Under the pieces are notes generated by a model, which saw only the letters and a list, made by a program, of their open reading frames with translations, had not been told where the DNA came from and made no database searches. The position numbers were made by a program, and so were the translations under genes. Of a stretch of DNA of 64,000 nucleotides, positions 56,112 to 57,546 are shown one piece after another. Position 1 is the first letter of the stretch. Every line of letters begins with the position of its first letter. Location: the NCBI RefSeq assembly GCF_988242995.1, contig NZ_OZ547043.1; one strand, written 5' to 3'.

Positions 56112-56493
56112 AAATAACCCGTGATATTTTTGACTTGTTAGTAACAAAATAAATGACACATGTCTGAAAGACATTTTTACGATGATACAAAGCAATAATA
56201 CTTATATGTTCGATGATTTTAAGCACCGATACCATCCGGTCTTTTACCAAATAATGAAAAAGAATCCCTCCCTGGAAGATAATTGTAAAAAACAACAGAA
56301 TAAGAATTAATCTTAGGATAAATATTTATTTACCATGGCCTTTTGAACGCTGAAAAGTAGCGCTCTGCAAAGTAAATCCCGCTATAGTTATGCTATGCAT
56401 TTGTCTTTAATGATATCTCGTCATTATATTAACAGGCTGAAATTATCATTAATGCACATTTCAATATTAGCAGGGATACCTGAGGAGTTTAAA

Positions 56494-57546
56494 GTGAACA
56501 TATATATCGGGTGGCTTTTCAAATTAATCCCTTTAATTATGGGCTTGATTTGTATCGCGTTAGGTGGCTTTGTGCTGGAAAGTTCAGGGCAAAGCGAATA
56601 TTTCGTCGCGGGTCATGTGCTCATTTCTCTGGCAGCCATATGCCTGGCATTATTCACTACCGCATTTATTATCATTTCGCAGCTCACGCGCGGCGTTAAT
56701 ACGTTTTACAATACATTGTTCCCCATTATTGGCTATGCGGGGTCAATTATCACCATGATCTGGGGTTGGGCACTGTTAGCAGGCAATGATGTGATGGCAG
56801 ACGAGTTTGTTGCCGGCCATGTTATTTTTGGCGTTGGTATGATTGCCGCCTGTGTATCGACAGTGGCAGCGTCATCCGGTCACTTTCTGCTCATTCCCAA
56901 AAACGCAGCAGGGAGCAAGAGCGATGGAACACCGGTACAGGCTTATTCGTCATTAATCGGTAATTGCCTCATTGCCGTTCCCGTTTTACTCACCCTGCTC
57001 GGTTTCATTTGGTCTATTACGCTGTTACGTAGTGCCGACATAACTCCGCATTATGTCGCCGGTCACGTATTGCTTGGGTTAACCGCAATCTGTGCCTGTC
57101 TAATTGGCCTTGTTGCCACAATCGTCCATCAAACACGTAATACGTTCTCATCCAAAGAGCACTGGCTGTGGTGTTATTGGGTTATTATTCTCGGCTCAAT
57201 CACGGTGCTGCAGGGCATATACGTGTTAGTCAGCTCCGATGCAAGCGCCCGACTGGCTCCCGGCATTATCCTCATTTGCCTCGGAATGATCTGTTACAGC
57301 ATATTCTCAAAAGTCTGGCTACTGGCACTGGTCTGGAGACGTACCTGTTCGTTAGCCAACAGAATACCGATGATTCCCGTCTTCACCTGCCTGTTTTGCC
57401 TTTTCCTGGCATCGTTTCTTGCGGAAATGGCGCAGACCGATATGGGATATTTTATTCCTTCGCGGGTTCTGGTCGGTTTGGGAGCGGTATGCTTTACGTT
57501 GTTCTCAATCGTTTCAATATTAGAAGCGGGTTCTGCTAAAAAATAA
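56494..57546 (+). CDS. yhiM: inner membrane protein YhiM (acid-resistance associated)
   Basis: 350 aa from GTG at 56494 preceded by GAGGAG; four internal repeats of a VAGHV-containing TM hairpin; matches remembered YhiM. Confidence 0.88.
   Translation: MNIYIGWLFKLIPLIMGLICIALGGFVLESSGQSEYFVAGHVLISLAAICLALFTTAFIIISQLTRGVNTFYNTLFPIIGYAGSIITMIWGWALLAGNDVMADEFVAGHVIFGVGMIAACVSTVAASSGHFLLIPKNAAGSKSDGTPVQAYSSLIGNCLIAVPVLLTLLGFIWSITLLRSADITPHYVAGHVLLGLTAICACLIGLVATIVHQTRNTFSSKEHWLWCYWVIILGSITVLQGIYVLVSSDASARLAPGIILICLGMICYSIFSKVWLLALVWRRTCSLANRIPMIPVFTCLFCLFLASFLAEMAQTDMGYFIPSRVLVGLGAVCFTLFSIVSILEAGSAKK

Follow-up and report, generated by a model that had tools for sequence, protein, structure and literature searches.

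Anatomy of a probable H-NS-silenced, stress-activated control region between the divergent genes yhiL and yhiM of Escherichia coli

The 64-kb stretch of DNA analysed here (the window) corresponds to the chromosome of a non-K-12 Escherichia coli, with a 99.8% match. In this stretch yhiL, on the minus strand (54522-56111, 529 aa, with DUF6860 and DUF4049 domains and an ATG start at 56111), and yhiM, on the plus strand (56494-57546, 350 aa, a DUF2776 inner-membrane protein with a GTG start), are divergent neighbours, an arrangement that a first-pass annotation had read from the sequence and that RefSeq annotation and Pfam assignments bear out. The yhiL gene is intact here but is a pseudogene in K-12, and yhiJ carries an IS200C insertion, unlike its K-12 counterpart. 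A search for the fold and family of YhiL returned DUF4049 and DUF6860 alone, with no sequence match in the PDB. The space between the two genes had been put at about 300 bp (56196-56496); its real length is 382 bp (56112-56493), equal to that in K-12, because yhiL begins at the ATG at 56111 and not at TTG 56195, which is merely the first TTG of a mechanically called open reading frame. The RefSeq start of yhiL maps to ATG 56111 of the window in KE55, O157, BL21, NB4833 and K-12. A start at TTG 56195 is ruled out by 1-nt indels that other strains carry at 56132 and 56175, within the supposed coding extension; O157 is among these indel-bearing strains, although its yhiL is annotated as intact.

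The spacer is 94.0% identical to that of K-12, with 23 substitutions in 382 positions, and these differences are unevenly spread. The yhiL-proximal half (56112-56294) is highly polymorphic, with 90.7% identity to K-12, and is restricted to genomes that possess the yhiJ/yhiL block. The yhiM-proximal regulatory half (56295-56493, plus strand) has homologues throughout Escherichia and shares 97.0% identity with K-12, and identity reaches 98.3% over the last 116 bp upstream of the GTG. The yhiL promoters in the yhiL-proximal half are all predicted ones. For example, TTTACA-17-GATTAT was predicted as the yhiL promoter in K-12 (Shimada 2014, PMC3946193), and the corresponding site here (56261-56289, minus strand) has GATTCT as its putative -10 element, while a second promoter-like site directed toward yhiL (56195-56222, minus strand; TTAAAA-16-TATTAT, 9/12) is a candidate by consensus match. 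Two small open reading frames in the spacer, one of 42 aa on the plus strand (56182-56310) and one of 69 aa on the minus strand, were considered and rejected as coding: the 42-aa frame is broken in K-12, where its start is lost, a stop is gained and the substitutions are mostly non-synonymous by eye, and 1-nt indels occur in the region in other strains.

The start of yhiM is the GTG at 56494-56496, separated by 6 nt from the Shine-Dalgarno sequence GAGGAG (56482-56487, plus strand). This start had been preferred in the first-pass annotation over an in-frame ATG at 56395, 99 nt upstream, and that choice is upheld by several lines of evidence. RefSeq places the yhiM start at this GTG in every genome examined. 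When the 383-aa reading frame that begins at ATG 56395 is compared with the Pfam DUF2776 profile, its residues 35-380 pair with positions 2-347 of the 348 in the profile; position 2 thus falls on residue 35, and position 1 on the GTG-encoded methionine. Seven diverged Escherichia alleles, drawn from B2 E. coli, E. albertii, E. whittamii and the cryptic clades (ATG-type alleles, as opposed to the GTG-type of K-12 and the window), have an ATG at the site aligned to the GTG, and in all seven the frame is closed by a stop lying 27 or 60 nt upstream of this site. Polymorphisms downstream of the GTG fall in third codon positions in 14 of 14 cases, versus 1 of 5 in the supposed extension (Fisher p = 0.0013). 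In K-12, primer extension mapped the 5' end of yhiM mRNA to an A that precedes the GTG by 22 nt, and GAGGAG-N6 was named as the Shine-Dalgarno sequence of a 350-aa product (Tramonti et al. 2017, PMC6604978). This 5' end corresponds to window position 56472 and hence falls downstream of ATG 56395. The in-frame 33-codon "extension" (56395-56493, plus strand; MHLSLMISRHYINRLKLSLMHISILAGIPEEFK), which lies outside the Pfam profile, is on these sequence comparisons judged to be non-coding.

Translation of yhiM from ATG 56395 into a 383-aa protein, replacing the 350-aa form or accompanying it and possibly proceeding from a leaderless mRNA, is nevertheless suggested by some features of the locus. In GTG-type alleles the frame stays open over the 49 codons that precede the GTG, ATG 56395 is invariant among these alleles, the transcription start site (TSS) implied by a published distance (56396; Seo 2015) lies no more than 1 nt from the A of this ATG, and an invariant TATAGT stands at a suitable distance for transcription to start at 56395. 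However, the TSS derived from that distance, to within 1 nt, is the T and not the A of the ATG, and the sequence upstream of 56395 is devoid of a Shine-Dalgarno element. The long frame is also not conserved, being closed in all ATG-type alleles and free of codon-position bias, and both the Pfam profile and the mapped 5' end speak for the shorter form. Its openness in GTG-type alleles is attributable to a 1-nt gap in that lineage. Hence, we regard this long form as hardly credible. A more specific version, in which a 1-nt deletion in a conserved TAGCAG(A) cost the GTG alleles their ancestral stop, so that transcripts from an upstream promoter starting on or next to ATG 56395 would be leaderless and would direct a lineage-specific, N-terminally extended 383-aa isoform beside the 350-aa protein, is likewise very unlikely. 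The 350-aa form is the right choice for expression constructs, deletions and protein models.

Upstream of this start lie a mapped promoter of yhiM and a probable second one. The proximal promoter, P1, comprises a -35 element at 56437-56442 (CTGAAA here, ATGAAA in K-12), a -10 element TTCAAT at 56460-56465 and a TSS at the A at 56472, all on the plus strand; its elements were described, and the TSS, 22 nt upstream of the GTG, was mapped by primer extension in MC4100 and MG1655 (Tramonti 2017, PMC6604978). The P1 -10 element is kept in GTG-type alleles only. The second promoter, P2, is indicated by TATAGT at 56383-56388 (plus strand), the probable -10 element of an upstream, sigma-S-type promoter, which is invariant in all 14 sequences compared and is therefore common to both allele classes. 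CTATAGT, with the C that precedes TATAGT in most alleles, matches at 6/7 positions the sigma-S -10 consensus, which is reportedly CYATAMT with the C at -13; UTI89-type alleles have a T in place of this C. The P2 start follows from the "distance to TSS -78.5" listed for the GadE site of yhiM, which implies a TSS at 56396 (plus strand), within 1 nt, on ATG 56395-56397 and 7-8 nt downstream of TATAGT; the TSS source behind this distance is RegulonDB v8 / Kim 2012 (Seo 2015). The reported 5' ends are thus in conflict, at -22 by primer extension and at -98 by implication (Seo 2015). A simple promoter scan detects neither P1 nor P2, and the promoter-like hexamer pairs that it does find in the spacer (6, versus 3.8 +/- 1.8 in dinucleotide shuffles) are not in excess over composition.

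This conflict allows a reading in which P2 is the principal and ancestral yhiM promoter, and the -22 end is either a promoter of the K-12-type lineage or a processed end. Primer extension does not distinguish primary from processed 5' ends. TATAGT is unchanged in 14 sequences that span alleles only about 77-79% identical, whereas TTCAAT is confined to the GTG-type; the -78.5 given for the GadE site refers to a TSS that precedes the GTG by 98 nt (Seo 2015), and among the peaks of RpoS holoenzyme binding by genomic SELEX (gSELEX) that fall inside the spacer, one lies at about window position 56372 (PMC5493296). On the other hand, a single extension product, at -22, was obtained in both K-12 strains, and the 1.1-kb yhiM band in Northern blots fits a 1127-nt transcript (Tramonti et al., PMC6604978). 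Moreover, no recognisable -35 element precedes TATAGT, the upstream TSS is not represented by any yhiM entry in the supplementary tables of Kim 2012 or Mendoza-Vargas 2009, and a text search for its coordinate returned unrelated papers only. The primacy of P2 is accordingly possible but doubtful, while P2 as such is a probable promoter. Stable structure in the transcript leaders was also considered, and a structured leader, thermosensor or riboswitch was rejected, as the predicted folds were not more stable than those of shuffled sequences (z = 0.49 for the P2 leader, 56396-56530, and 0.17 for the P1 leader, 56472-56530); likewise, no known RNA family was returned when 55800-56800 was scanned against Rfam at E <= 1.

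Upstream of both promoters lies a GadE ChIP-exo footprint at 56305-56330 (plus strand), which corresponds to K-12 positions 3632675-3632700 (NC_000913.2) and contains a GAD-box-like TTAGGAT core (Seo 2015, Supplementary Table 1). Inside it, the run TAGGATAAAT (56314-56323) is unchanged over the 14 sequences. In K-12, this region is peak P8 at yhiM, and deletion of gadE lowers yhiM expression 15-fold (log2 -3.9), although the ChIP-exo signal is weak (S/N 1.53; Seo 2015). RcsB(D56E) together with GadE also shifts the yhiM promoter in gel assays (Krin et al. 2010, PMC2984483), and the dependence of yhiM on RpoS, GadE and GadX has been published for K-12. When the site is compared with the GAD box (TTAGGATTTTGTTATTTAAA; ChIP-exo motif TTARGAWWWWAAATA), the TTAGGAT core is exact but the 20-bp match is only 11/20. 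The yhiM promoter hence resembles the GAD-box promoters of gadA and gadBC in GadE/RcsB binding, RpoS involvement, H-NS repression and possession of a TTAGGA core within the ChIP-exo peak, and differs from them in its poor match to the full box and in its spacing. GAD boxes are centred near -63, as with gadBC (-62.5) and gadA (-64), whereas the same table (Seo 2015) places the yhiM site at -78.5 from the P2 TSS, which is equivalent to -154.5 from the mapped P1 TSS at -22. In a further difference from gadA and gadBC, the ChIP-exo tables contain no GadX or GadW peak at yhiM. The GadX input is probably indirect. A further GAD-box candidate, at 56303 on the minus strand with a 14/20 match, was rejected, as it is without the TTAGGA core.

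The K-12 and present promoter regions are identical in the P1 -10 TTCAAT, the TSS base, GAGGAG-N6-GTG, the core of the GadE footprint and TATAGT; they differ in the P1 -35 element and by one A/T difference inside the GadE footprint. All of the binding and expression data cited in this study come from K-12, the spacer of which is 94% identical to that of the window.

The spacer had also been described as AT-rich and as typical of H-NS-silenced promoters, and both descriptions agree with the data. Its GC content is 31.4% over 56112-56493 (32.6% over 56196-56496), compared with 51.1% for the window, and only 1.5% of all 382-bp segments have so low a GC content. The spacer shares its AT-richness with the whole yhiJ-yhiL block. 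In an hns mutant of K-12, yhiM is up 10.75-fold, and competitive gel shifts showed that H-NS preferentially binds the fragment carrying the yhiM promoter (Krin et al. 2010, PMC2984483). The H-NS ChIP data that the first-pass annotation proposed as a check are available for K-12, and the Kahramanoglou and Oshima ChIP-chip data place H-NS on the yhiL/yhiM spacer (Panyukov and Ozoline 2013, PMC3661553); the spacer is likewise flagged "HNS" by gSELEX (Shimada 2014, PMC3946193). Sequences like the high-affinity H-NS motif (TCGATAAATT) are not significantly enriched in the spacer, where one site with at most two mismatches occurs (56210-56219) versus 0.5 expected; a GATAAAT lies within the invariant block. 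The spacer also coincides with "promoter island" 3632424_449 (window 56054-56502), one of 78 such islands; it is AT-rich, H-NS-bound and adjacent to foreign-scored genes, and it was exceptional as the only island in its genome quarter to give full-length transcripts (PMC3661553). This description of the locus differs from ours in that promoter-like sites were not significantly more numerous in the simple scan than in composition-matched shuffles.

GadE and RcsB mediate part of the action of H-NS on yhiM, which is to that extent indirect. Could AT-richness be a compositional legacy of the acquired yhiJ-yhiL block, with H-NS mainly silencing yhiJ and yhiL and acting on yhiM chiefly through GadE, RcsB and other activators? 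The 3.9-kb yhiJ-yhiL-spacer block (52638-56493) has 35.1% GC as a whole, so that the spacer is unexceptional within it, and B2 strains without yhiJ and yhiL retain a regulated yhiM. Deletion of gadE or rcsB in the hns background removes two thirds of the effect, yet the hns gadE and hns rcsB double mutants still show a derepression of about 3.4-fold, which persists in the absence of GadE or RcsB, and direct in vitro binding of H-NS to the fragment with the yhiM promoter was shown (PMC2984483). Given in addition the placement of H-NS on the spacer itself by ChIP-chip, such a purely compositional origin is unlikely, and we favour direct silencing of the yhiM control region by H-NS, supplemented by the indirect route.

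The allelic context of the spacer is consistent with its division into two halves. In all, 1128 E. coli genomes, like the sister species, are without yhiJ and yhiL; those lacking these genes include B2 E. coli, E. albertii, E. whittamii and the cryptic clades. The replaced segment is bounded by window positions 51791 and 57880, and the K-12-type yhiM lies within this segment, which B2 strains lack. At the ATG-type locus of B2 E. coli, E. albertii and E. whittamii (UTI89 and CFT073 are examples; see PMC11005409), yhiM also encodes 350 aa and is located between yhiY/yhiI and yhiN. This locus is without yhiJ and yhiL, 557 bp separate yhiM from yhiY, and the coding sequence shows only about 79% DNA identity and 90% protein identity. 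Upstream of about 56300, no homology was found between the spacer and the ATG-type yhiM loci; downstream of it, the two classes share the footprints TAGGATAAAT and TATAGT and the position of the start codon. A genome scan for loci with more distant homologues returned only Escherichia and one probable contaminant contig.

Taken as a whole, the yhiL-yhiM spacer is very probably a known H-NS-silenced, stress-activated control region, composed of an acquired yhiL-proximal part and a conserved yhiM module, from which yhiM is translated at GTG 56494 through GAGGAG and activated by GadE-RcsB and RpoS. The yhiL-proximal 183 bp would belong to the AT-rich, horizontally acquired yhiJ-yhiL block, and the yhiM-proximal approximately 200 bp would form the conserved module, with its GadE/RcsB site (56305-56330), the TATAGT upstream promoter (TSS about 56396) and the proximal promoter (TSS 56472). 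H-NS would coat the AT-rich DNA and hold down yhiM expression during growth. RpoS-RNA polymerase and GadE-RcsB would together raise yhiM transcription approximately 10-fold in stationary phase, in acid or under anaerobiosis, with activator binding presumably displacing H-NS, and we infer that this K-12 regulation carries over to the present strain.

It should be emphasized that the start at GTG, the leader of 22 nt, repression by H-NS and activation by GadE/RcsB have all been published for yhiM of K-12, in which binding of H-NS and of GadE/RcsB, the 5' end at P1 and the dependence on RpoS, GadE and GadX are demonstrated, and that RefSeq already uses the GTG. The present comparison established the start codon, the layout of the region, its footprints and its association with an acquired block; the two invariant footprints (TAGGATAAAT and TATAGT) and the replaced-segment context of the K-12-type yhiM are its modest additions. 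There is little consequence beyond correct annotation; the footprints pin down the GadE site and the probable upstream promoter. The allelic context also bears on how published work is read, as control by CpxR and CueR was reported for the ATG-type allele only (PMC11005409). As the K-12-type yhiM lies in a segment missing from B2 strains, the acid and GABA phenotypes described in K-12 and the copper and Cpx phenotypes described in uropathogenic E. coli concern alleles that differ in their upstream regions.

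The window matches E. coli chromosomes (4234 of 5426 complete genomes), with strain KE55 the closest at 99.8%, and annotation transferred from the RefSeq records of KE55 and K-12 MG1655 shows the genes in the order yhiI, yhiY, yhiJ, yhiL, yhiM, yhiN, pitA. Here yhiL (Pfam DUF6860 and DUF4049) is encoded on the minus strand, yhiM (DUF2776) on the plus strand, confirming the divergent arrangement in which the first-pass annotation had placed a control region of about 300 bp at 56196-56496. The left boundary and length given there do not hold. Position 56196 is the base following the first TTG of the mechanical yhiL ORF, and the yhiL start is an ATG at 56111 in all RefSeq records examined. 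Single-base indels occur between 56112 and 56195 in other strains (a 1-nt deletion at 56132 in 13KWH46 and HUSEC2011, and a 1-nt insertion after 56175 in an O157 strain with yhiL annotated as intact), and this stretch is therefore not coding. Together with the RefSeq start, this places the spacer at 56112-56493, 382 bp as in K-12. Apart from left boundary and length the observation is real and its interpretation correct; all central points are already known from the literature and RefSeq annotation.

The spacer is AT-rich, as had been noted. Its GC content is 31.4%, compared with 51.1% across the window, which puts it in the lowest 1.5% of 382-bp stretches. This composition extends into yhiL (34.3% GC) and yhiJ (36.7%), with 35.1% for the whole block 52638-56493. 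Promoter-like sites in the spacer are not in excess over shuffles, no Rfam families were found in the scanned region, and the yhiM leader has no structure of unusual stability. Small ORFs in the spacer were rejected as genes, not being conserved as coding. A second strongly AT-rich block at about 4000-6300 (32% GC, minimum 27.5% near 5495) covers tssD (yhhZ), yrhA and yrhD, which are also among the H-NS-bound 'promoter islands' (PMC3661553).

Four independent lines favour the proposed yhiM start, the GTG at 56494 (plus strand) preceded by the Shine-Dalgarno sequence GAGGAG (56482-56487) and a TTTAAA spacer, over the in-frame ATG at 56395. Positions 2-347 of the 348-position DUF2776 profile align to residues 35-380 of the 383-aa ORF read from that ATG, which puts the N-terminus of the family at the Met encoded by the GTG. 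We also compared ten loci with usable upstream sequence, drawn from one scanned genome per species and fetched E. coli loci. Three of these (the window, MG1655 and Escherichia sp. MOD1-EC7003) have the GTG with 49 open upstream codons; in the other seven, termed ATG-type (UTI89, APEC E956, E. coli E69, SCPM-O-B-8794, Escherichia sp. E1V33, E. whittamii and E. albertii), an ATG aligns exactly with the GTG and an in-frame stop lies 27 or 60 nt upstream. The alignment indicates that a 1-nt gap in a conserved TAGCAG(A) stretch opens the upstream frame of the GTG-type alleles. Among eight GTG-type E. coli, every one of the 14 sites that vary within 300 nt downstream of the GTG is a third codon position, compared with one of five variable sites in 56395-56493 (Fisher exact p = 0.0013). 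Finally, primer extension in MC4100 and MG1655 placed the mRNA 5' end 22 nt before the GTG, at an A, and yhiM has a single monocistronic transcript of 1.1 kb (Tramonti et al. 2017; PMC6604978). This end corresponds to window position 56472, leaving the ATG at 56395 outside the mapped transcript; the 5' end mapping suggested as a check was thus already published for yhiM in K-12, and agrees. All seven ATG-type alleles also carry a second in-frame ATG 12 nt (four codons) upstream of the yhiM ATG, which overlaps the Shine-Dalgarno sequence (ATGGAG or ATGGGG), lacks one of its own, and could extend the N-terminus by MEFK or MGFK.

The suggestion that the region is H-NS-silenced is likewise supported by published K-12 data showing direct binding and derepression. 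Competitive gel shifts showed H-NS binding the promoter fragment of yhiM preferentially; yhiM rises 10.75-fold in an hns mutant and still by about 3.4-fold when gadE or rcsB is deleted as well, and RcsB(D56E)/GadE also produces a shift (Krin et al. 2010; PMC2984483). The H-NS ChIP proposed as a further check also exists and concurs: the ChIP-chip data of Kahramanoglou and Oshima show H-NS on the spacer, which is listed among 78 'promoter islands' and associated with genes scored as foreign (Panyukov and Ozoline 2013; PMC3661553). It is also bound by RpoD and RpoS holoenzymes and flagged 'HNS' (Shimada et al.). GadE gives a ChIP-exo peak at yhiM, GadX and GadW give none, and gadE deletion lowers yhiM 15-fold (Seo et al. 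2015; PMC4918353). In the B2 strain CFT073, the 0 to -400 fragment is shifted by CpxR-P, and CueR acts as a repressor (PMC11005409).

In an alignment of 14 upstream regions representing the two allele classes, homology between the classes begins only at about 56295, the yhiL-proximal 183 bp of the spacer being specific to genomes that carry the yhiJ/yhiL block. Within the shared 200 bp, TAGGATAAAT (56314-56323) and TATAGT (56383-56388) are invariant. The GadE ChIP-exo peak (3632675-3632700 in NC_000913.2) was converted to version 3 with an offset of +1977. This offset fits the total length difference between the NC_000913 versions, agrees with published island coordinates, and places the peak at 56305-56330, spanning TAGGATAAAT. 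The TTAGGAT core is exact and the 20-bp GAD box matches at only 11 of 20 positions. The invariant block (56313-56323) combines the TTAGGA core for GadE with a GATAAAT stretch that resembles the core of the high-affinity H-NS nucleation motif, whose enrichment is not significant; its content hints that GadE and H-NS may compete directly at one site.

The GadE site lies at -78.5 from the transcription start (Seo et al. 2015; PMC4918353), implying a start at 3632766, or window 56396. This position precedes the GTG by 98 nt and follows TATAGT by 7-8 nt. The position, derived from a number in a supplementary table, and sequence conservation together lead us to read TATAGT and the start at about 56396 as an additional promoter (P2) upstream of the one mapped by primer extension. 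The P2 -10, CTATAGT, resembles the sigma-S consensus, and the RpoS holoenzyme gSELEX peak at 3632742 lies about 24 bp from the derived start, if the coordinate version is the same; the start was not found in the primary tables searched. The -10 of the primer-extension promoter P1, TTCAAT, is conserved in GTG-type alleles only, and P1 is therefore a lineage-specific promoter or a processing site, two cases that primer extension cannot tell apart. A leaderless long YhiM isoform from P2 in GTG-type alleles is unlikely given the evolutionary evidence against it.

The likeliest mechanism is that H-NS covers the AT-rich DNA of the yhiJ-yhiL block and spacer and holds yhiM expression down in growing cells. 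Acid pH, lack of oxygen or entry into stationary phase would then bring higher transcription, driven by RpoS polymerase and by GadE-RcsB bound at 56305-56330, with translation beginning at the GTG. Regulator binding and dependence have been shown in K-12; that the activator acts by displacing H-NS is our inference.

The GTG-type 5' region occurs at >=80% identity in 4194 genomes (all but one >=90%), which carry yhiJ-yhiL. In 1128 genomes (B2 strains such as UTI89) it is only 60-80% identical, yhiM is ATG-type, yhiJ/yhiL are absent and yhiM lies 557 bp from yhiY (e.g., in UTI89). Relative to UTI89, the flanks are 96-98% identical up to 51791 and from 57880, yhiM shares only 79% DNA and 90% protein identity, and the yhiM-yhiN spacer is 314 bp rather than 86 bp; the whole segment is replaced (51792-57879 versus 3508-5159 of the UTI89 locus). 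The ATG-type arrangement is common to E. albertii, E. whittamii and the cryptic clades and is probably ancestral, the K-12-type yhiM probably having come in together with the yhiJ-yhiL block or diverged in parallel with it. An earlier study scored the presence of yhiM as variable and its gene tree as conflicting with the species tree (Skippington and Ragan 2012; PMC3318445). A 466-bp contig labelled Terrisporobacter petrolearius (NZ_JAHZMO010000167.1, coverage 0.9) encodes the C-terminal 103 residues of YhiM, 100% identical to E. coli; E. coli DNA has almost certainly contaminated that assembly.

YhiJ (52734-54260) and YhiL (54522-56111) are paralogues, about 35% identical. Both contain GDxxGDR and LAGNHE motifs, which by eye resemble metallophosphoesterase signatures, a tentative lead; Pfam gives only DUF4049 and DUF6860, and no PDB sequence matched. 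Compared with K-12 and KE55, an IS200C element (IS200/IS605 family, about 707 bp, 52049-52755) is inserted in the yhiJ 3' end and truncates its ORF to 508 aa from 540 aa. yhiL is intact in the window (529 aa), a pseudogene in K-12 MG1655 and annotated as frameshifted in both 13KWH46 and HUSEC2011, a pattern that suggests recurrent decay of the gene in E. coli.
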